DNA of 64,000 nucleotides from a virus, in the IMG/VR virus record IMGVR_UViG_3300032896_000001, positions 1-64,000 of that record; one strand, written 5' to 3'. Of this stretch, positions 1-56,390 are shown piece by piece (the stretch's first letter is position 1; each line of letters starts with the position of its first letter). The notes below the pieces were generated by a model, which was not told the DNA's origin, ran no database searches, and saw nothing but the letters and a program-made list of their open reading frames with translations. The translations under genes were made by a program, and so were the position numbers.

Positions 1-489
1 CCTCCCCTGCAAGGAAGGCAGCAGCACTCGGGAAGCCATCTGCAACAGGCCCGCACTCAGACACGCACCGCCCGACCAGCACCAGCCCGAAGATGATCTC
101 CGCCACCTACAAAATTGACGCACACCCCCCTCGGCCGCCCCCGCGAGCCATGCCCGCGCCTCGTCGCACGCGCCGCCCGTCATGGCGTGATGGTGCGCCT
201 CCTGCCGGATCCGGCCGCCGTGCAGGTACCCGCAGGGCGCGTAGTCGGCTCGCTCGTCCTCGTCCATCCCCGCCCACTCGGCAGGGCAGGGCATCGTCCG
301 CAGCGGCCCCGGCCGCCAGAACACGACAAGCGCGCCGAAAGGAGGCAGGACGAGGGCGGCCGACTCGTCGCACCACTCGTTGGAGCCCCTGAAGGCGCAC
401 GGCTTCCACCAGTCGGTGACCGACCAAGGGAACCACCACTGCCAGCGGCGGCGGTAGACGCCGCCCTTGCGGAACGTGCCGTCACTCAG
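1..489 (-). CDS. Hypothetical Trp-rich protein, runs off the window edge; possible CTG start
   Basis: Manual translation (L)SDGTFRKGGVYRRRWQWWFPWSVTDWWKPCAFRG... with GC-rich third positions. No stop before position 1, so absent from the ORF track. Confidence 0.6.
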   Translation of the reverse strand, partial: MSDGTFRKGGVYRRRWQWWFPWSVTDWWKPCAFRGSNEWCDESAALVLPPFGALVVFWRPGPLRTMPCPAEWAGMDEDERADYAPCGYLHGGRIRQEAHHHAMTGGACDEARAWLAGAAEGGVRQFCRWRRSSSGWCWSGGACLSAGLLQMASRVLLPSLQGR

Positions 490-20538: not shown

Positions 20539-21141
20539 ATGGCCATACGAACGCGGGACGGGAACGGCCGCTACATCCGCACCATCAAGACGACGAAGCG
20601 CGACTTCGACGCGGCCGAGCTCCGGGCGCGCGGCTGGAGGCTCGAGCGGATCGCCGCGGAGCTCGGCTTCGCGTCCCGGGGTCACGTCCACGACGCGGTC
20701 AGCCGCGCGCTCCGCGAAACCCCCTACGACGGCGCCGAGGACGACAAGCTCCTCGACCTGATGCGCATCGACCGGCTCATCGAGCAGGCGTGGGACGTCA
20801 TGCACCGCAAGCACGTGACCGTCTCCCACGGGAAGATCATCACCCGCCAGGTCGGCGTCGAGTGCGATGAGGACGGCATTGAGCGCCTTGACCTCGACGG
20901 CAAGACGATCCCCGTCTACGAGGACGTCCTGGACGACGCGCCGGTCCTCGCCGCAATCCGGGAGATCCGGTCCCTGGTCAAGCGCCGCGCGGAGATCATC
21001 GGCTACGACGCCCCCCTGAAGACGCGCATCGAGGTCATCACCGAGGACGCGGTCGACGCGGAGTGCGAAAGGCTGCTCGCCGAGATCGCGGAGCGGGAGA
21101 AGCGTGAAGCCGCCGCCGCTGATACTGGCGCCGCCGGGTAA
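20539..21141 (+). CDS. terS: Terminase small subunit (HTH type)
   Basis: ELRARGW....IAAELGF...KRRAEIIGYDAP; immediately upstream of terL. Confidence 0.75.
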   Translation: MAIRTRDGNGRYIRTIKTTKRDFDAAELRARGWRLERIAAELGFASRGHVHDAVSRALRETPYDGAEDDKLLDLMRIDRLIEQAWDVMHRKHVTVSHGKIITRQVGVECDEDGIERLDLDGKTIPVYEDVLDDAPVLAAIREIRSLVKRRAEIIGYDAPLKTRIEVITEDAVDAECERLLAEIAEREKREAAAADTGAAG

Positions 21142-22792
21142 AGTCCGCAGGCTCGCCGAGCTCCGCGCCCGCAGGCGCCAGCTGGCCGAGCGGTCCCGCC
21201 GCTCCTGGGCCACGCCGGGGGAGCTCCAGAAGGCGATCGACCCGTCGACAGTCCAGACCCCCGCGCTGGACCTGATCGACGAGGCGATCGTCTGGGCGTA
21301 CAGGACGCCCGGGGCGCGCCTCGCCGTGTCCATCGGGCCGCAGGAGGGCAAGAGCACCCGCGTGACCCGCGGGGGGTCGCTGTGGAAGCTGACCGACGAC
21401 CCGGAGACCCGGATCGGGATCGTCTCCTACGCGCAGGCGCTCGCCGACGGGTTCAGCCGCGACATCCGGAACGCGATCGCCTCCAACAACGGCGACGACG
21501 GGACCCTTGACCTCGGCCTCCGGATCGCCTCCGACTACGGGTCGGCGCGACGCTGGCAGCTCGACGGCCACCGCGGCGGCGTCGTGGCCGCCGGCGTCGG
21601 CTCGGGCCTGAACGGCCGGCCGCTCGACTGCATGGTGGTGGACGACCCGTTCGCCGACGCGGTCCAGGCCGGGTCGGCCTACTACCGCGACCGGGTGTGG
21701 GACTGGTGGCAGACGGTCGGGTCGACGCGACTCGCGCCGGACGGGCCGGTCCTGGTCATCTGCACGAGATGGCACGAGGACGACTTCGTCGGACGGCTCG
21801 TCAAGGCCGAGGACGGCCACCGCTGGCGGGTCGTCAACATCCCGGCCATCGCCGACCACGACCCGGCTCAGGGGCAGTCCGACCCGCTCGGCCGGGAGCC
21901 CGGCGAGTGGCTGACGTCCGCCCGGGGCCGCACGCCGGCCCAGTGGGAGCAGATCCGCATCCAGGCCGGGTCCCGCGCTTTCGCCGCCCTGTACCAGGGC
22001 AGGCCCTCGCCCGACCAGGGCAACGTCTGGCAGCGCCAGTGGTGGCGCTACTACCCGTCGCCCCTGTGGTCCCAGCATCCGGAAGCGCCCGGCGCATGGC
22101 TGGTCGACGCCGACGAGGTACTGATCTCAGTCGACGCCGCTTTCAAGGACACGAAGTCGAGTGACTTCGTGGTCATGCAGGTTTGGGCGCGGCGCGGCGC
22201 GACCGCGTACCTGCTCGACCAGGTCCGCAAGCGGCTGACGTTCACCGAGACCCTGACCGCGTTCACCGCCTTGTGCGCGAAGTGGCCGCAGGCGACCCGG
22301 AAGCTGGTGGAGGACAAGGCCAACGGCACGGCGATCATCGACTCGCTGAAGTCGAAGATCCCCGGCCTGAAGCCTGTGAACCCGACCGACTCCAAGTACG
22401 GGCGGGCGGCGGCGGTCGCCCCGGTGATCGAGTCCGGGAACGTGCTGCTGCCCGATCCGCTGATCGCGCTGTTCGACACGGGGGAACTGGTCACGGAAGC
22501 GGCCCAGTTCCCGAACGGCGCGAACGATGACATGGTCGACGCGACCTCCCAGGCTCTCGCGGAGATGTTCTTGGACGGGACCGGCGGGGCGGCGTGGATT
22601 GCCTGGATCAAGCGCAAGGTCGAGGCCCAGGCTGCAGCGGAGCACGGTGATCGGCCTGGCCCGGAACCGCAATCGGAAGGCGCGAAGACGCCCGATCCTG
22701 AACCGGAAATCCCGGCCGCCCCCCTCAGTGACGCGGAACGCAGGCGGCAGGCCCGCAATGAGATGTACCGCCAGCAGCAGGAGCGCCAATGA
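21104..22792 (+). CDS. terL: Terminase large subunit
   Basis: GPQEGKS, VVDDP, TRWHEDD, ALYQGRP, ISVDAAFK..SDF, VEDKANG, FPNGANDDMVDA. Confidence 0.97.
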   Translation: MKPPPLILAPPGKVRRLAELRARRRQLAERSRRSWATPGELQKAIDPSTVQTPALDLIDEAIVWAYRTPGARLAVSIGPQEGKSTRVTRGGSLWKLTDDPETRIGIVSYAQALADGFSRDIRNAIASNNGDDGTLDLGLRIASDYGSARRWQLDGHRGGVVAAGVGSGLNGRPLDCMVVDDPFADAVQAGSAYYRDRVWDWWQTVGSTRLAPDGPVLVICTRWHEDDFVGRLVKAEDGHRWRVVNIPAIADHDPAQGQSDPLGREPGEWLTSARGRTPAQWEQIRIQAGSRAFAALYQGRPSPDQGNVWQRQWWRYYPSPLWSQHPEAPGAWLVDADEVLISVDAAFKDTKSSDFVVMQVWARRGATAYLLDQVRKRLTFTETLTAFTALCAKWPQATRKLVEDKANGTAIIDSLKSKIPGLKPVNPTDSKYGRAAAVAPVIESGNVLLPDPLIALFDTGELVTEAAQFPNGANDDMVDATSQALAEMFLDGTGGAAWIAWIKRKVEAQAAAEHGDRPGPEPQSEGAKTPDPEPEIPAAPLSDAERRRQARNEMYRQQQERQ

Positions 22793-22906
22793 GTTCCTGC
22801 GGCGCGAGGACGTTCCGCGGGCGCGTGGCGGCAACACGGAAGCGTCCGGGTTTAGGCTTACCGGGTGAGGAAGTCGAACGGGCCTTACAGGGCGCGGCAC
22901 GGGTCG

Positions 22907-23080
22907 ATGATGAACATGCAGCGTCATCGCGAGGCGGTAGAGGTCACCTGTCCCGAGGGGCACTCATTCCACGTCCAAGCGCGAAACGGCGCGCTCGTAA
23001 AGTGCGCGGTCTGCCTTAACGATGACGGCATCGTCCGGTGGCTGACCGTCCGCCGAGGACGTTCCGAGGGAGCGTCGTGA
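22907..23080 (+). CDS. Small zinc-ribbon protein
   Basis: TCPEGH...KCAVC. Confidence 0.55.
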   Translation: MMNMQRHREAVEVTCPEGHSFHVQARNGALVKCAVCLNDDGIVRWLTVRRGRSEGAS

Positions 23081-23873
23081 CAGAAGATCTTCTGACCAGG
23101 CGCGAGGCGGCGGTACGGCTCGGCGTCTCGGTTGAGGACCGTGATCCGCTACGAGGATCTCGGGCTGCTTGACGCCCGCCGCGTCGGCCCGAAGTTGATC
23201 CGCGTCACCGCCGACTCGGTTGACGCCCTCGCCGGGCAGCAGCAGCAGGCGCCCGAAGAAGCGCCGCAATCTGCGCCGCACCCCGCAGGGCAACTCGTAG
23301 CCGCTTTCGCAGAGCAGTCTTATGAGTGGGCTCTCGGCTGGGCCGCGAGCCGATACTCGCGCAGCCCTTTCCCGGAGACTCCCGAGGAAGTCGCGGCGGA
23401 TTTCGCGCCGGCATTTCTCGGCGCGGTGACGGCTGGCCTGTTCGAGTGGAACCGCCGGGTGGGCTGGCGTGACGACGATCCGCGCTGGAATGATCCCGCA
23501 GCGGTGCTGGCCGGGCAGGCTACCGTCGCACGGCCCGGCGATCGTCATCGACGTCCACGACAGCACGGTGATGACCGACGAGGACGTCGACAAGCTGGTG
23601 TCGAAGCTCGGCCCCGCCGTGACGAAGGCACTCAGGCAGGCAGGCGTGAGGACGAGGATGCCCGACACGCCGCCCCCGCCATCGGAGCCGCCGGAGCCGT
23701 CACCCCCGCCGCCGTCGTCCTCGCCGCAAGAGCCCGGCCGGTCAATCGCCAGGATGCTGGCCGAAGGGCTGGCCAAGGGACTGCCCCGACCCGGCGACGA
23801 TGACGGCACCGCATCGTGCCCTGCCGTGCCGCCCCGGCCGCCTAAGCCGCTCACGCCGCGGGTGATCCTGTAA
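23077..23873 (+). pseudogene. Xis-like HTH protein with tape-measure-like C-terminus, broken by one or two +1 insertions (real or assembly error)
   Basis: VTEDLLTRREAAVRLGVS continues as RTVIRYEDLG only after removing one base near 23132. Coding-like codon usage changes frame again near 23518. Confidence 0.6.
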
Positions 23874-24231
23874 CGAACGGCGAGTCCCCGGCCCACTTGA
23901 CCGCTCCGTTGTTGACGCCTCTCCCGACCATCTCGCTTACCGACGTGGCCCCGATGAGCGCCCCTGAGGGCAGCGTTACGGCCAGGTCTTCGCCAGCGGG
24001 CCGCATGAGCGAGCCGATCGACGTCTCGAGCGCCCAGGCGAGTCCGAAGACCTCCTCGACAGTTATCCGCCGGCGCCGCCTCTCCGTATCGCTGACCGTC
24101 TGGCGCAGCCATGCCGAGTAGCCGAGGGCGCGCATGCGGGCTGCCAGGCTCTCCTGGTTGATGTCTAGACGGCTGCGCGCCGCGCGGATGTTCCTCGCGA
24201 GCACGGCACCGTAAGTCGGCGTGAAGTCCAT
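23851..24231 (-). CDS. XRE-family repressor-like protein
   Basis: LARNIRAARSRLDINQESLAARM...W.RQTVS..E..RRRITVEE...LA.AL. Confidence 0.85.
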   Translation of the reverse strand: MDFTPTYGAVLARNIRAARSRLDINQESLAARMRALGYSAWLRQTVSDTERRRRRITVEEVFGLAWALETSIGSLMRPAGEDLAVTLPSGALIGATSVSEMVGRGVNNGAVKWAGDSPFVTGSPAA

Positions 24232-24264
24232 CCGCTCATCATCCCGCAACCCGAGAGGGGTGCC

Positions 24265-24531
24265 GTGGCTGACGCCGAGGCCCCGCCCGTTTTCGAGACG
24301 GATGGCCAGTGGCCGTTTTCCGGGACCGTGAAGGTCAACGGGCATCCGCTCGCGTCCGTCTCTTCCTGGTCCGTCACAGCCGCCATCGACGGCGTCCCGA
24401 TTGTCACGCTCGGCCTCGTCGACCAGGGGGCGCTCCGCCTCCTGCTGTCCCCGGGGGCGGCGTCGGTCCGGGTGACCGACGCGACCCGGGATGCGCTTAT
24501 CTCCCTCGGCTGGACTCCTCCGGCGGGCTGA
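24265..24531 (+). CDS. Hypothetical protein
   Basis: ORF between the repressor and the portal; RDALISLGWTPP end. Confidence 0.6.
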   Translation: MADAEAPPVFETDGQWPFSGTVKVNGHPLASVSSWSVTAAIDGVPIVTLGLVDQGALRLLLSPGAASVRVTDATRDALISLGWTPPAG

Positions 24532-24586
24532 CGGCCGCGAACGGCACTGATAACGGCCGCCAGGCGGCGCGCGGGGAGGGCACCGC

Positions 24587-27500
24587 ATGAGCGTCCGATC
24601 CCGCGCCGCCTTCGCCACGGCCCCGACCGTCGAGGTCGCCAAGGTCTTCGGCCCGGGGGTTCCGCCGGCGATCCAGGCGGCTGAGGCCGAGGCGCAGATG
24701 ACGCCGACGAGCCCGTTCGGCCCCGGCACCCCGATCGGCCCGTACGACGGGTTCTCGCGGCAGCCGCGCAGCCAGAATTTCGTCACCGGGGTCAACATCG
24801 CGACCCGGCCGCGGACGCATGAGCGGGTCAGCTTCGAGACGCTCAAGGGCCTCATCGACGCTTATGACATTGCATCTATTGCGATCTGGCATCGTATTGA
24901 CTCGATCCGCAGCCTGGATTGGCAGCTCATCGCGGCGCCGCATTTCCAGGGCAATGTGACCGACATTATCCCGCTCGGGGTCAAGGCGCTCAAGAAGCCG
25001 GACCGGATCAACTCGTTCAGCTCATGGCTGGCGAAGTGGCTTTTCGATGTTCTCGCCTATGACGCGGGGGCGCTTTACAGGCTCCGCAACCGGGCGGGCC
25101 GGTGCATCGGCCTCCTGCCGATTGACGGGACCTCGGTGGCACCGCTGCTCGATTACTGGGGCAACCCGCCGGGTGCCTTGAGCGCCCCGGGCGAGGTGCT
25201 TCCCGAGGCGTACGTCCAGTATGTCAACGGGCTGCCGTGGAACTGGCTGACGCGCGATGACCTGATCTACCAGCCGTTCCGGCCGCGCACCAACTCGCCG
25301 TACGGGCACGCGCCGCTCGAGTCGATAATTCTGAATGCAAACACCGATATTCGCTTTCAGCTTTTTTTCCTTCAAAGATTCACCGAGGGGAATATCCCGG
25401 AGGCGTTCGCGGCCGCCCCCGAGACGTGGTCGCCGGATCAGATAGAGCAATTCCAGGAATACTGGGATGGCTTTATGTACGGCGATCAGTCGCGGAAGCA
25501 CCAGATTCGGTGGATGCCGGGCGGGTCGAAATTCGCGTGGTCCAATGAGAAGGACTTCAGCGACACGTTCTCGCTGTTCCTGATGCGGAAGACTCTCGCC
25601 GCGTATCACACGGTCCCGGCCGACATCGGATTCACGGAAAATGTAAACAAATCGTCCGGGGAATCGCAGGCGGACGTTCAGCACCGCGTCGGCGAACTGC
25701 CCCTCGACGCCTACGTCGAGGCCGTCCTGACGGACTTCCTGCAAGACGACCTCGGCCTGCCGCTCCAGTTCGAGTTCGACAAGGGCGAAGAACAGGACGA
25801 CCGGCTCGCGGTCGCGCAGGCCGACGAGATCTACATGCGCAACGCCGTCATCGGCTCCAGCGAGATCCGGGAGATGCGGTTCGGCCTCCCCGAGCCCGAC
25901 GGGCAGGTCGTCCCCCGCGGGTTCTTCACCGAGCGGTCCGGGCTCATCCCGATCAACTCGGTGCTCGCCGTGGCAGGGCCGATCGACCCCGCGACCGCCG
26001 CGCCCGAGCCGGGCGCCCCGCTGCCCCACACCGTGTTCGGGGGCGTCGAGGGCGTCCTGCCGAACCCGCCGATCAAGGTCCCGAGCCTCGCCGAGCAGGA
26101 GTACGGCCCGGCGGCGATGCCCCCTGCGCCGCCCCCTCAGCCGAAGATGACCGCCGCCGACGCCACGCCCGAGCTGGCCACCGGGGCGGTCTCCAAGGAA
26201 GGCGAGGGAGCGGGAGGGAACGTCACCGGGGGCATCACGACGGCGACGGGCCTGTACTCCTACGACCTCCAGGGCCAGGACGACGAGGACGGCCCGGTTG
26301 ATCAGGCGGCGGTCGCGAAGGAGATGCAGGCGTTCCGGCGGTTCGCGAAGGCGCGCCGCAGGGACGGGGAATGGCGGGACTTCGAGTTCCGGGCGGTCCC
26401 CGCAGGCAGGGCGCGGCAGCTGAACGCCGAGGGCTTCACCGCCGCCCGCAAGGCGGCCGTGCCCGGTCTCACGTCCCGCTCCGGCATGATCTCCCTCGAC
26501 CTGCCGCCGGGAACGCTCAGCCCGGTACCGGGCGGCGTGGACGACTTCCACGTGACCGTCGTGTACCTCGGCAAGGACGTGGACGACGACGCGTTCGCCG
26601 CAGTCTGCGAGCGGGCGCGCCAGGCCGCCGCCCTGGTGCCCGGCCCGCTTCAGGGCACGGTCTCCGGCGTGGGCGCGTTCCCTCCGTCGGACTCGAGCGA
26701 CGGCAAGGTGCCCGCGTGGGCCGCCGTCGGCATCCCCGGCGCGGAAGCCCTGCGGAACGCGCTCGCCGACCTGTCTGCGAGCGAGCACAAGGACTGGACG
26801 CCGCACGTCACCCTCGCCTACCTCGACCCGGGCGACCCGCTGCCGGCCCCGCTGGAGCCGGTGCCGGTGACGTTCGCGTGCCTGTCGGTGCACCGCGGCG
26901 ACCAGGTGGAGCTGTTCCCGTTCGGCGGCGATGACGTGGCCAAGGCGGCGAGCACGATCCCAAAAGCGCCGACGGGGACCGGTGACGCCGCCCCCGCCTG
27001 GCACGGTTGGACTCTCGACGGGAAGACCGCCGCGCACTGGGCCCCGAAGGTCCGCGACTCGGTTAAGGCGGCGGTCCCGAGGGCGAAGGCCCGGGACATG
27101 GGCCGCGACTATCTCGCCGACCACCCGGATCAGGACGGCGGGGCGCCGGACAAGCGGGACCGGAACAAGGGTGCCGCGGCGTGGGTGGCCGCGTGGCTCG
27201 CACGGCACGGGATCACTCTCGTCCCGTCGGCGGTGGCCGAGGCGATCGCCGTGGACGGCTACGCGATCGGCGCCGTCTCCGCTCAGCATCAGGTCACCGG
27301 GGAGCGCCCGGCGGCGCAGAAGCCGGGCGACACCGACCGGGCGCTCGAGGCGGTCGGCGCGGCCGGGCTCCTCGCCGCCCTCGCCGCGGCGATGCGCGGG
27401 GAGAACGGCGCCCCGGCGGCCGAGGCGGTCGCCGACGGGATTGCCCGCGGGTACGGGAACGCCCTCGCGATCATCCTCGCAGGGACCGACGCCGACTGGG

Positions 27501-49534: not shown

Positions 49535-49896
49535 CCCGGCTTGTACTCCGGGTGCTTGTCGTAGGCGGACACGAGCGACATGAGCGTCCGGAACGCCAGG
49601 TTGGCGTGTGGCGCCGGGAACGGCGACCCGTACCGGGCATGGCCGGCGTTGAACCCCGGCTGCCTGCTCATGGCCCGCTCGCAGTCGGCGACGATGCGCC
49701 GCTTGGCCGCGATCTCGCGCAGCGTGCGGGCAGGGCGGCCGCAGTTGCAGTCAGGGTCACGGCGAGCCGCGTCCGCCATGTCTTCCGCGTACAAGAGCGC
49801 GTCGCACTGCCCCACGTCGTGGACGGCCCATGCTCGCGCCTCTTCCTCGTCGAGCCTCGCCGCGTAGAACGCCGCGATCTCGCCTGTCTCGTCCAT
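49522..49896 (-). CDS. DUF6221-family protein
   Basis: IAAFYAARLDEEE...PARTLREIAAKRRIV...YDKHPEYKPGWKP. Confidence 0.8.
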   Translation of the reverse strand: MDETGEIAAFYAARLDEEEARAWAVHDVGQCDALLYAEDMADAARRDPDCNCGRPARTLREIAAKRRIVADCERAMSRQPGFNAGHARYGSPFPAPHANLAFRTLMSLVSAYDKHPEYKPGWKP

Positions 49897-49962
49897 GCCG
49901 CCAGCATGCCATTCCCGGCACGCGCCCCGCCCACGCACGCACCAGAGCAAAGGAGGAGCGCC

Positions 49963-50946
49963 GTGGCTTACCCAGCCCTAACAGAGCGCCCAGGATCGCT
50001 GTCCGCCACCGGCTTCGCGGTGGAGACCGACTTCGGGGAAGCGGTCAGCGCGACCACATTTCTCCCCATGACCAGCAACGGGATGGAGTACGACCCGGGC
50101 TGGTTCTCCCCGACGCTGATGATGGGCGACCGGGACAAGCAGGTTTTCAACCTCGAGGGCGAGGCGAAGAACGTCGGGACGATCGAGGGGCCGCTGTTCC
50201 CCTCGAACGCGATCCCGCTGCTGGTCGCGGCGATCGGCACGGACGCGGTGACGGGCTCGTCGCCGTCGTACACGCACACTTTGAGCCAGGCGAACACGCT
50301 CGCGTCGCTGACGGTCGAGAAGAACCTCGGCAACTACCAGAGCCTGCAATTCGCCGGGTGCAGGGTCGGGAAGTTCTCGGTCAAGGCGCCGGTCGGCAAC
50401 GACCCGGTGATGATCAGCGCGGACATGTCCGGGCAGTCGGTGGCGATCCTCACCAGCCCGACCGCGATCAGCGTCACGAACGAGCTGCCGTGGGTGTTCT
50501 CCGAGGCGTCGTTCTCCCTCGGCGGGTCGGCCCGCGCGGACATCACGAACGTGACGCTCGACATCGACAACGGGCTGAAGGAGACCTGGACGTACTCGGG
50601 CGAGCACGGGCCGTCGTTCATCACCCCGGTCAGCCTTCACGTCTCCGGCACCTGCGACGTCGTGTGGACGAGCCTGAACGCGGCGACGTACGGCGACTTC
50701 ACCACGATGCTCGACCAGACCCTCGGGGCGCTGTCGCTCTCGTTCACCCACCCCGGGGGGAGCGGCGCGTCGGTCACGTTCAACTGCCCGCAAGTCGTCC
50801 TGAGCAAGTTTGGGGCAGATCTAAAATTCGACGACGTAATCATGTCGAGCTGGTCCTGGGAGGCGAGCCGCCCGCTAAGCGGCGGCAGCGAGTACACCAT
50901 CCAGGCGGTCGTGGTGAACTCGGTTTCCACCGCCTACACCGGCTGA
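49963..50946 (+). CDS. Major tail (tube) protein
   Basis: RBS AAGGAGGAG; ETDFG, YTHTL, SLTVEK, F.GC.V, IDNGL. Confidence 0.85.
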   Translation: MAYPALTERPGSLSATGFAVETDFGEAVSATTFLPMTSNGMEYDPGWFSPTLMMGDRDKQVFNLEGEAKNVGTIEGPLFPSNAIPLLVAAIGTDAVTGSSPSYTHTLSQANTLASLTVEKNLGNYQSLQFAGCRVGKFSVKAPVGNDPVMISADMSGQSVAILTSPTAISVTNELPWVFSEASFSLGGSARADITNVTLDIDNGLKETWTYSGEHGPSFITPVSLHVSGTCDVVWTSLNAATYGDFTTMLDQTLGALSLSFTHPGGSGASVTFNCPQVVLSKFGADLKFDDVIMSSWSWEASRPLSGGSEYTIQAVVVNSVSTAYTG

Positions 50947-54600: not shown

Positions 54601-54985
54601 CTCGACCATCAAGTCGTTCCTGCCGTTCTCCCCGGCCAAGCGCGGCCCGCTGTCCGGGGCGGGCGACCCGTCGAACTCCGGCAAGTCGATCGCGAAGAAG
54701 CTCGCGCAGGGGATCACCGCCGGGAAGGGCGAGGTCGCCGCGGCCGCGCACGCGCTCGCCGGGTCGGTGACGACCGGGACGTCCGGGGGCATGGGCGGGC
54801 TCGCGCTCAGCGCCGCCGGCGGCGCGGGCGCGGCGGCCGCGGGCGCGGGGGGCGTGAACCTCACCATCGACCTGCGCGGGGCGTCGATCATGAGCGACAG
54901 CGACGTCAACAACCTGGTGCGCAAGCTCGGGCCGGCCGTTGTGAAGGCTCTGAACCAGGCCGGGATCAAGGTGAGGATGCCTTGA
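51665..54985 (+). CDS. Tape measure protein
   Basis: 1106 aa, Ala/Gly-rich helical, Trp-periodic repeats, C-terminal FLPFSPAKRGPLSG. Confidence 0.95.
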   Translation: MAGAESFTVLAILEARDAASEIFAKIDESLDKFGETAAKAAETARGAGDSIDESLLHTASGADALDLATARVVATQEKATRTAEAQADAERALLEAYRASQGAADDDVASQYRLLEAQQLLTAKSKENAAAQKDLSAAQKLQADTAEAAAAKNDEAAASTTAVKDASEAGGISLGTMGKVAGITALGLGVAAAVMVKAAGNFQSSTTHLVTDAGESASKLAMVQAGILNVSTATGTAASDVTTAMYHIESGGMHAQEGLNVLKVAAEGAKVGNADLGTVSQTLVGTLNAYYGSTMNAGNATQRSTSMMNELIAIVGSGDMTMQQLASSISSVAPIASKAGISLAQVGGAIATMTSQNMSANQATQDLAHTISALQNPSSIQTAEMAQLGLSSTKVSQNLGKEGLTGTIATLTGAITSHMGPAGTVLMNAFNQSKTASADANTMLSKLPASIQSVAKGYLDGTVSYNTWYAATKSLPLVARTMADQFASTAGKAHGFNSILAAGGPAAQTYSAALSKMMGGQMGLNTALMLSGKNQGTFDKNAATAARAAAAGGSAVQNWAAIQGTFNQKVDVAKTGIENTGIAIGTALLPAVTSVLSAITRVIIPIAEWTAKHRTLTEVIFVSVTAIAAVIAVIAIAKKAFDAVSGAVKTVQATLKALGIISKETADTQAASAESAAAAQESSSAEASAAMTADAEEVAAANDEAAAESSASWLTAATEQIATAAGWVAEQAVKVASVVASNVAAAATTAGAWVAAGAQQVAGAAVWVAQTVAKVAVIVASNVAGAAVTLAAWVAANAAMLLGIALIVAAVVAAVLLIVKYWKQISDAAKEAFDFVIQIAETVFDWVKAHWPLLLAILLGPFAVAALEIAAHYKQILKAVSDAIDWVKSNWPRLLEILTEPIDSAVTWIEQRFDQIRSGAASLVGDLVHFFTTLPSRIIGALGNVGSMLFGAGEKIIQGLINGIENMVGSVGSAIGSIASTIKSFLPFSPAKRGPLSGAGDPSNSGKSIAKKLAQGITAGKGEVAAAAHALAGSVTTGTSGGMGGLALSAAGGAGAAAAGAGGVNLTIDLRGASIMSDSDVNNLVRKLGPAVVKALNQAGIKVRMP

Positions 54986-55007: not shown

Positions 55008-56390
55008 GTGGTCGCCAGGCCGAACCTGACCCTGACCCTCACCCCTCCGGGCGGCAGCCCGGTCCAGGTTCAGTCGATGCTCGCCTACGAGGGCCACAGC
55101 AACGACTTCACCATCACGCAGAACTTCGGCCGGCAGGGCGACACCGCGTCGTTCCCGCTGGTCGACGAGTACTCGGGGACGCCGAACCTGGCCTATGTCG
55201 AGCCGATGACGCTGGTGTCGCTTTACGACGGGAACTGCTCGCAGACGCTGTTCGCCGGGGTCGTCAGCGACCCGAACCTGTCGCCGACGAGCCCGACCCG
55301 CAACGAGTGGACGCTCAACTGCACCGACTACACCTATTACGCGGACAAAGCGATCGTGCACGGCGTCTACAACGGGCTGACCGCGGACGTGGTGATCGTC
55401 GACCTGGTGGCGCAGGCGAACTGCGGGATCAGCGCCGCGACGGTCGCGGACGGCGGGTTCGTCGCCCCGGGTCCGGTGCTGCCGAACCTGATCCTCAACT
55501 ACGGCAGCCTGAGCGACGCGTGGCGGAAGCTGGCGACCCTCGCCGGGGCGGCGACCCCGTACGGGTGGTACGTCGACCAGAACCGGGCGCTCCACTTCTT
55601 CGACGCGAGCACGGCGATCGACTCCGGGGTGACGGTCACCACGACGCCGACCGTCGGCGGGTCGACGACCCAGTGCCACATGCTGCTCGACAATACGAAC
55701 AATTACGAGTGGGATGGCACATCATTGCACAATAAGGTACTTGTGCAGGGCGCCACCCAGACGATCTCGCAGCCGACGAGCGGGCCCGCCACGGACGTGT
55801 GGCTCGCCGACGGCGCGCAGCAGGCATGGCCGCTCCGCTACACCGTCTCCGGCACCCCGTCGCTGACCGTCGGCGGCGTCAGCCAGACCGTGACGTCGGT
55901 GACGCCCGGGACCGCCTCCCCGTCCGGCTGGTCATGCCAGCAGAACGCGTTCGGCCAGTACTTCCTCTGGTCGTCGACCCCGCCCGGCGCCGGGAACGTC
56001 ATCGAATGCTGGTACTCCTACCAGGTGCCCGTCGTCGCCCAGGCCACCGACTACAGCTCCGTCGCCACCTACAACGGGCCGAACGGCGGGGTCTTCGCCG
56101 AGTTCATCTCCGACACGACCCTCACGACCGCGCCGATGGCATTGGCCCGCGCGCAGCAGGAACGGCAGGAGTACGCGTTCGCCGCCGAGAAGTGCACCTT
56201 CAACACCAGCGAGGACTTCCTCGGCTGGGTGAGGGCCGGCGACACCTTCACCTACGTGAACCAGTTCATCCCCGACTCCGAGCGGTCATGGGCGCTCGGG
56301 GTGAACGACACGTTCATCTGCACCGCGAACACCATCACGTTCGGCACCGGCGGTTATCGCCAAATGCAGCCGACCGGGGTCCGGCTCTGA
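55008..56390 (+). CDS. Minor tail protein (baseplate hub-like)
   Basis: Follows tape measure; GWYVDQNRALHF. Confidence 0.75.
   Translation: MVARPNLTLTLTPPGGSPVQVQSMLAYEGHSNDFTITQNFGRQGDTASFPLVDEYSGTPNLAYVEPMTLVSLYDGNCSQTLFAGVVSDPNLSPTSPTRNEWTLNCTDYTYYADKAIVHGVYNGLTADVVIVDLVAQANCGISAATVADGGFVAPGPVLPNLILNYGSLSDAWRKLATLAGAATPYGWYVDQNRALHFFDASTAIDSGVTVTTTPTVGGSTTQCHMLLDNTNNYEWDGTSLHNKVLVQGATQTISQPTSGPATDVWLADGAQQAWPLRYTVSGTPSLTVGGVSQTVTSVTPGTASPSGWSCQQNAFGQYFLWSSTPPGAGNVIECWYSYQVPVVAQATDYSSVATYNGPNGGVFAEFISDTTLTTAPMALARAQQERQEYAFAAEKCTFNTSEDFLGWVRAGDTFTYVNQFIPDSERSWALGVNDTFICTANTITFGTGGYRQMQPTGVRL

Follow-up and report, generated by a model that had tools for sequence, protein, structure and literature searches.

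Why would a phage carry, between its terL and portal genes, a short open reading frame (ORF) whose product resembles the far end of its own tape measure protein (TMP)? The question is raised by the ORF at positions 23469 to 23873 of a 64,000-nucleotide stretch of DNA, called the window here, which is the first 64 kb of the 105,095-bp IMG/VR virus record IMGVR_UViG_3300032896_000001. CheckV rates this record as complete, the G+C content of the window is approximately 70%, and the source is an uncultured actinobacterial phage. We refer to the ORF as the mini-TMP gene and to its product as P0002. The analyses below argue that it is very probably a selected, stand-alone mimic of the docking end of the TMP, carried in a moron-type cassette. 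What the mimic might do is a separate and more tentative matter, which is weighed after the evidence for the gene itself.

P0002 copies two segments of the TMP C-terminal region

Comparison of P0002 with the TMP of the same phage by BLASTP revealed significant similarity in two segments. Residues 25 to 65 of P0002 align without gaps to the TMP's extreme C terminus (residues 1066 to 1106), with 23 identities over 41 positions and 78% positives (E = 3e-14). Residues 71 to 104 match TMP residues 987 to 1020 (E = 5e-5), a region that includes the PGRSIARM.../SGKSIAKK... motif. The segments follow each other in opposite orders, the C-terminal motif being first and the SGRSIAR-type motif second in P0002, and the reverse in the TMP. 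A sequence-only reading of this DNA had pointed to both matches, to their swapped order and to the location of the ORF between terL (phrog_38) and the portal gene (PF04860), and all of these observations held up, with the sub-coordinates confirmed by script (Table 1).

In contrast to a TMP, P0002 is a stand-alone protein of 134 residues with permuted motifs and a Pro-rich tail. It has no Pfam match at E ≤ 1, and the PhageMin_Tail domain, the long helical ruler and coiled coils are absent from it. It has no transmembrane segment (maximal 19-residue Kyte-Doolittle hydropathy of 0.48), and inspection of its N terminus showed no signal or lipobox. The site of its gene between terL and portal is also unlike that of TMP genes, which are located between the tail chaperone genes and Dit.

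The frame has the features of a translated gene. The GTG start at 23469 is preceded, 6 nucleotides upstream, by the sequence GGGTGG, and an alternative ATG is found at 23490. From approximately 23480 to 23800, third-position GC in this frame is 0.87 to 1.00, and second-position GC goes down to 0.30. High third-position together with low second-position GC is the signature of a translated frame.

The copy is not a recent duplicate of the resident TMP end, as shown by the number of synonymous substitutions per synonymous site (dS) of 0.52 between the two. We compared it with the TMPs of two related phages, G001, a 132-kb phage (IMGVR_UViG_3300040759_000032), and G002. With the IVIDVHD-type TMP ends of these two relatives the P0002 copy shares 71 to 73% identity, versus 56% with the end of its own TMP, which is of an LTIDLRGAS type.

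Mini-TMPs form a family under purifying selection

A HMMER scan of 1.84 billion representative proteins recovered TMP C termini at library-wide E values of 4.6e-8 to 4.5e-4 and small homologues, comprising four kinds of short protein, at E values of 1e-30 to 1e-36. Such library-wide values place the match far beyond chance. A profile search added four further short proteins (P0017 to P0020). We define the mini-TMP family as P0002, P0003, P0006, P0010/14, P0013, P0017, P0018 and P0020; intact ORFs with their own starts occur in about 10 distinct sequences, and the homologues of the window gene are small proteins from metagenomes. Their common core, M[ST][DE]ED..L..KLGPAV..[AS]L, is found in short ORFs of 60 to 134 residues (E = 1e-30 to 1e-14 in the HMMER and profile searches).

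The members differ in how much of the P0002 layout they contain. P0006, from an ENA assembly, is 96% identical to P0002. P0003 and P0017 have the complete series of TMP-end copy, linker, SGRSIAR-like motif and Pro-rich tail, and in P0017 a Met of its own stands five residues ahead of the strand. P0020 corresponds to the C-terminal half of this layout, and P0010 and P0014 consist of the helix and tail only, with no second motif. P0013 and P0018 possess both motifs in TMP order. The SGRSIAR-type motif is kept in P0003, P0013 and P0017, as well as in the TMPs of 108 Mycobacterium, Gordonia, Streptomyces and Corynebacterium phage records. At the other end of the protein, the tail of P0002 stops approximately eight residues before those of P0003, P0010 and P0017 in the alignment, and its DNA is 78% identical to that of the P0010 tail in G001. 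Similarity between the family tail and the portal linker was not significant. Finally, the 215-residue protein P0019, from a 3.8-kb contig of a JGI metagenome, contains the module IVIDVH...KLGPAV... set between Cys/His-rich segments (CDCGGGH ... CGHC). It may be a fusion clue to a link between the mini-TMPs and their small Cys-rich neighbor ORFs, with which P0019 has no significant similarity.

The family is small and unannotated, and it occurs in uncultured high-GC siphophages. Its members match nothing in Pfam, PHROG or PADLOC, and our literature searches found no description of TMP-end mimics. In the phage GenBank collection, neither the DNA of positions 22790 to 24590 nor the P0002 protein had a match; the TMP's final 41 residues were likewise unmatched there, and only its SPAK/SGRSIAR region matched actinophage TMPs. 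GTDB genome contigs contained no relative, and scans of viral contigs with P0002, P0017 and P0019 as queries returned nothing.

We estimated selection on the 23-codon core. Between P0002 and P0010, dS is 0.85 and its nonsynonymous counterpart, dN, is 0.13, so that most synonymous sites differ and few replacement sites do. Among the mini-TMPs, dS ranges from 0.57 to 0.85 and the dN/dS ratio (omega) from 0.15 to 0.39, the latter value being that of P0002 versus P0013. The mini-TMP core is under purifying selection. At the position where DSD is found in six of the seven TMPs compared, and ERD in the seventh, all mini-TMPs have DED or EED. This shared difference speaks for a single origin of the mini-TMPs and for their separate descent. 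The family would have arisen when a 3′-end fragment of a TMP gene became an independent ORF, and P0013 and P0018 are still in TMP order. The swapped order of P0002, P0003 and P0017 could then be a circular permutation, for instance by tandem duplication and loss of the outer copies.

P0002 is therefore a real and maintained gene, with a soluble, mostly disordered product of approximately 14 kDa that presents two pieces of the TMP C-terminal region. It has a counterpart of a kind in the window, an 89-residue ORF at 30138 to 30407 (+) that is a copy of an internal portal segment (portal residues 160 to 229; 39 of 70 positions identical, E = 2e-22). At least two ORFs of this phage are thus copies of parts of its own virion proteins.

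The mini-TMP gene belongs to a mobile accessory cassette

The G001 genome reveals what the locus looks like without the mini-TMP gene. In G001 (locus L012), terL is followed by an 86-residue ORF and then by the portal gene, and blastn homology with the window resumes at window position 24244, position 226 of L012, at 84% over 1260 bp. This insert-free arrangement and the point at which homology resumes identify approximately 22793 to 24243 as a 1.45-kb insertion (Table 1).

Table 1. Coordinates of the mini-TMP gene, its parts, its cassette and the late-operon genes discussed in the text (positions in the window)
Feature	Position	Strand	Evidence or remark
Mini-TMP gene, product P0002	23469..23873	+	134 residues, 14.1 kDa, isoelectric point 8.8, 21% Pro
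Copy of the extreme TMP C terminus	23538..23663	+	strand IVIDVHD, amphipathic helix ...KLGPAV..., end ...RMP
Proline-rich linker	23664..23732	+	translation; coil of low pLDDT
Second TMP motif, PGRSIARMLAEGLAKG	23733..23780	+	upstream of the C-terminal end in TMPs; E = 5e-5 vs TMP 987-1020
Family-specific Pro-rich tail	23781..23870	+	DDDG..C..PPRPPKPL...
TMP, 1106 residues	51665-54985		PF10145 (PhageMin_Tail), E = 4.6e-19
SGKSIAKKLAQGITAG motif of the TMP	54677..54724	+	
Last 41 codons of the TMP and stop	54860..54985	+	LTIDLRGAS-type end
460-residue protein directly 3′ of the TMP gene	55008..56390	+	Dit/hub position, candidate docking partner; basis: position
Accessory cassette, ~1.45 kb	22793..24243	.	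from terL to the conserved 88-residue ORF and portal
71-residue Cys/His ORF, zinc-ribbon-like	22865..23080	+	CxxGH ... CxxC; third-position GC ~0.8; sub-threshold Zn_ribbon_Brz, E = 0.13
Xis/MerR-like helix-turn-helix gene	23077..23500	+	+1 frameshift at 23131-23134 (GTTG), then orphan Trp-rich region
XRE-type helix-turn-helix gene, 126 residues	23851..24231	-	convergent with the mini-TMP gene, 23-nt overlap; PADLOC "control protein," E = 6e-5
Conserved 88-residue ORF before portal	24265..24531	+	flanks the cassette, outside it; 86-residue homologue directly after terL in G001
terS-like gene	20539-21141		late operon
terL	21104-22792		phrog_38, E = 1e-98
Portal gene, fused to further domains	24587-27829	+	1080 residues, PF04860
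Tail tube gene	49552-50946		Phage_tube_2

Cassettes of similar composition are present elsewhere in the late operons of relatives. In G001 such a cassette lies after the post-TMP gene and before the next tail gene, and it comprises the mini-TMP gene for P0010, a Cys-rich ORF and a minus-strand XRE gene; at the same site the metagenome contig Ga0302314_10065016 (L008) has the gene for P0013, a Cys-rich ORF and an XRE gene, again on the minus strand. The Cys-rich and XRE genes of these two cassettes are homologous (E = 2e-24 and 1e-35). The post-TMP site is devoid of a cassette in G002 and in the window. This pattern of presence and absence among syntenic relatives indicates that the mini-TMP gene is an accessory, moron-type gene. 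It shifts place even relative to its cassette neighbors, and an opposite-strand XRE gene accompanies it in all three cassettes. The XRE gene of the window matches Pfam HTH_3 below the cut-off (E = 0.034). The possibility that the Cys-rich cassette proteins are diverged TMP-end copies was rejected (BLASTP E = 0.39; hhalign probability of 0.2). Between 22700 and 24700, no match to a σ70-type promoter or an intrinsic terminator was found with consensus models that are poorly suited to high-GC actinobacterial phages. In L008, another small Cys-rich ORF (positions 1 to 162, minus strand) is located just upstream of the post-TMP homologue, where the end of the TMP gene is expected; this may be another insertion site.

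The upstream gene is frameshifted, and its fusion to the mini-TMP gene is unsupported

Immediately upstream of the mini-TMP gene is an Xis/MerR-like helix-turn-helix (HTH) gene whose reading frame is interrupted. When GTTG at 23131 is read as one codon, a contiguous HTH is obtained (translation P0016; HTH part at 23077 to 23213), and this corrected translation matches MerR with 27.5 bits (E = 2.8e-6; cut-off of 28.2) and HTH_17 with an E value of 3.8e-4. Judging from the letters, the gene is frameshifted in this sequence, by mutation or error. Its 3′ end is undefined, as the 23132 frame is open to 23803, across the mini-TMP gene; the third-position GC signal departs from that frame at approximately 23500. 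The middle region (P0004; residues 1 to 128 of the 23132 frame) has no homologues, a weak match to phrog_28156 being confined to the HTH part, and it has no similarity to the N terminus of P0019. An extension of the TMP homology upstream into the 23132 frame was suggested by a DNA alignment and discarded, since in-frame BLASTP showed nothing.

The sequence-only reading had invoked two single-base insertions, which if erroneous would fuse the HTH to the mini-TMP. The first, at 23131, is real in the sequence, and its correction restores the HTH. The second, at approximately 23518, is unneeded because P0006 begins upstream of that point in the frame of P0002. Of the two arrangements that had been left open, the stand-alone members of the family and the Met of P0017 favor an ORF of its own, whereas a fusion is unsupported at the second site.

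Predicted structure and a candidate docking partner

The AlphaFold2 (AF2) model of P0002 contains one confident helix, at residues 37 to 57 (predicted local distance difference test [pLDDT] of 72 to 83), a short helix in the second motif and coil elsewhere, with a mean pLDDT of 62 and a predicted template modeling score of 0.21. Such a predicted profile is that expected of a peptide that folds on a partner. A precedent for the position of such a partner comes from mycobacteriophage Douge, in which the last 42 TMP residues (1658 to 1699) form a trimer in the lumen of the DTP-BHP (Dit-hub) complex, burying approximately 3,564 Å2 against the hub (PMC13033339). Residues 25 to 65 of P0002 share homology with the final 41 residues of the resident TMP and of related TMPs, and both the length and the terminal position match the Douge segment; the parallel is positional and does not come from a sequence comparison with the Douge TMP. 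A search of PDB sequences with the C-terminal 194 residues of the window TMP gave only a weak match (E = 0.027), to TMP chain 9d93, covering the upstream helical part rather than the C-terminal end.

In the window, the protein in the corresponding position is the 460-residue protein encoded directly after the TMP. Homologues 73 to 91% identical to it are found after the TMP in G001 and G002 and also in L008. It has no sequence match in Pfam, PHROG or PDB, and the Atlas gave a weak YQBQ lead (12% of one cluster). An AF2 model built from four sequences has a mean pLDDT of 28.7. The sequence-only reading had put this protein forward for complex prediction, and a complex of it with residues 18 to 110 of P0002 passed weakly, with a score of 0.35 versus 0.00 for the best control; the runs agree in at least 30% of the contacts, and the pLDDT of the partner is at least 42. 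Of 80 solved complexes, 58 attain the mark used, as do 2 of 110 mismatched pairs. Only 7 of the 80 attain it with scores of 0.60 or under, a range that holds both of the passing mismatches, and a pass there is likelier to be wrong than right except where the pairing was probable beforehand. The prediction may thus be taken as a hint that P0002 docks on the post-TMP protein, and as weak support for that idea.

A possible role in interference with tail assembly

What would such a mimic do? The sequence-only reading had offered three roles: a dominant-negative inhibitor of tail assembly in related phages, a decoy for host sensors and a regulator that senses tail-tip proteins. In the reading that we favor, the mini-protein would occupy the docking site of the TMP end in the Dit-hub lumen, or another partner of that end, in place of the full-length TMP. 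Because the copy is of the IVIDVHD type and the TMP of the carrier is of the LTIDLRGAS type, we propose that it acts mainly on coinfecting or superinfecting relatives. Initiation of their tail assembly would be blocked, yielding tail-less or defective particles, and the diverged TMP end of the resident phage would be spared. Competitive interference fits the data best, since the copied segment matches the hub-lumen segment of Douge in length and position and the copy resembles the TMP ends of other phages. That P0002 competes for this site and thereby hinders the tail assembly of IVIDVHD-type relatives, by analogy with Tai proteins and through mimicry, is a possibility that we put forward tentatively.

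The HK97 protein gp15 and the TP-J34 protein Ltp are membrane or lipoproteins that act at DNA entry. They are cited in PMC11364771 and PMC3952083 as TMP-directed superinfection exclusion morons. Like them, the mini-TMP gene is an accessory gene in or near a structural operon whose product would interfere with a TMP-dependent step of another phage; unlike them, P0002 has no signal peptide or transmembrane segment and is itself a TMP copy. The Tai proteins of prophages, phage-inducible chromosomal islands and P4-like satellites block the tail assembly of rivals via tail-tip proteins (He et al. 2024, PMC11364771). The function that we infer here resembles theirs in its proposed outcome: a small protein from a mobile element would hit the tail-tip components of a rival, and the carrier must avoid self-inhibition. 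In contrast, Tai proteins are not described as copies of virion proteins, and escape mutations are found in the central fiber or needle, not in the TMP. P0002 has no match in PADLOC 2.0.0 (2023).

Several observations weigh against this proposal. The mini-TMP gene is co-oriented with the late operon and is thus possibly expressed during the tail assembly of its own phage, which is awkward for an inhibitor. The argument from greater similarity to foreign than to resident TMP ends rests on a single phage, and the P0010 protein of G001, which lacks the strand, the ...RMP end and the second motif, shows roughly the same similarity to either TMP type. The post-TMP protein could be Dit, hub or something else. 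The selection estimate rests on 23 codons. The cassette of the window is partly decayed, its HTH gene being frameshifted and the tail of P0002 ending early, and its XRE and Cys-rich ORFs have no significant homology to their counterparts in G001 and L008, the arrangement being only analogous.

Alternatives to competitive interference

The mini-protein might instead be a tail accessory, made with the late genes and directed at the tail tip of the phage itself. It could stop up the Dit-hub initiator for a time or chaperone it until the TMP is in place, or it could set when tail initiation begins. The late-operon location and orientation in all three contexts would suit such a factor, as would the lack of a separate promoter or terminator detected in the 22700 to 24700 region and the weak contact predicted with the resident post-TMP protein. 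An essential assembly factor is, however, expected to have a fixed place, whereas the mini-TMP gene is sporadic and variable in site, being absent from the post-TMP site of G002 and from the terL-portal site of G001, and the copied end matches foreign TMP types better than its own. We thus find a self-directed accessory rather unlikely. The gene might also do nothing: illegitimate recombination of a moron cassette could have brought in a 3′ fragment of a TMP gene, which would now be in decay together with the frameshifted HTH gene. The broken state of the adjoining HTH gene, the short tail of P0002, the mostly disordered model and a family that is small and found in metagenomes only are what one would expect of such a by-product. 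Decay is at odds with about 10 distinct intact ORFs that have their own starts, with omega values of 0.15 to 0.39 at near-saturated synonymous change, with third-position GC of 0.9 to 1.0 and with the survival of both TMP motifs through a rearrangement, and we regard a functionless fragment as quite improbable.

The company of HTH genes suggests another type of explanation, a regulatory checkpoint, by analogy with the FlgM/σ28 logic. The mini-protein would be a partner of the HTH or XRE protein and would be titrated by free tail-tip complexes, thereby coupling expression of the cassette or of late genes to tail assembly. An XRE-type gene beside the mini-TMP gene in each of the three cassettes, the HTH gene immediately upstream in the window and the setting of the module within the larger Cys/His-rich P0019 protein are consistent with this model. 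Yet XRE genes are ubiquitous in phage morons, that of the window has no detectable homology to the others, and the mini-TMP gene shifts relative to the XRE gene, so that we give a checkpoint of this kind little chance. Host immunity might be the target instead, if the peptide were a decoy that absorbs a sensor of the TMP C terminus. At least one STAND family, Avs18 (bioRxiv 10.64898/2026.01.04.697583), is a TMP sensor, and the same phage has a stand-alone copy of a segment of its portal, portals being targets of Avs proteins. However, Avs18, the only TMP sensor that we found in the literature, is reported to bind a central helical segment of approximately 130 residues and not the C-terminal end; a faithful copy of an activating ligand would trigger the sensor rather than blunt it, and PADLOC 2.0.0 gave no defense-related match. 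A decoy role thus appears very unlikely.

Implications of TMP-end mimicry

If P0002 does compete for TMP docking, it would represent a simple form of interference between phages that is based on mimicry. Genes of this kind could be spotted by sequence alone, being short ORFs with homology to the ~40 residues at the end of a TMP. The mini-protein would also provide a handle on the contacts that the TMP end must make for tail assembly to begin or for DNA release to be gated in actinobacterial siphophages, and it would account for a class of orphan small ORFs that recurs in phage genomes. If it is a helper or a relic, it would be a minor curiosity of the evolution of phage gene fragments. A broader view, which we consider doubtful, is that many phage lineages carry selected, stand-alone copies of the hub-docking TMP end as a mimicry weapon or a checkpoint on tail-tip assembly, and perhaps copies of other virion-protein fragments too, such as the portal copy at 30138 to 30407. 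In this group of actinophages the mimic would be circularly permuted, tuned to the TMP type of rival relatives and able to hop between late-operon sites in an XRE-regulated cassette, and the whole would make up a new class of interference that can be recognized from sequence.

Other features of the late operon

Three further observations concern late genes outside the cassette. The portal ORF also contains a domain similar to 2H phosphoesterases and 2′-5′ RNA ligases (PF13563, E = 5.6e-8, residues 655 to 754). In the tail region, the 627-residue protein encoded at 58623 to 60506 (+) has Kelch-repeat matches that are below the cut-off (PF24681, E = 1.7e-6), and it may be a β-propeller receptor-binding protein. 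Finally, in G001 the homologous parts of terL, residues 3 to 181 and 175 to 559, are separated by approximately 1.36 kb (positions 86463 to 89525; loci L009 and L011). The insert stays within one open frame of 1043 residues, with no stops, and the interruption looks like an intein.

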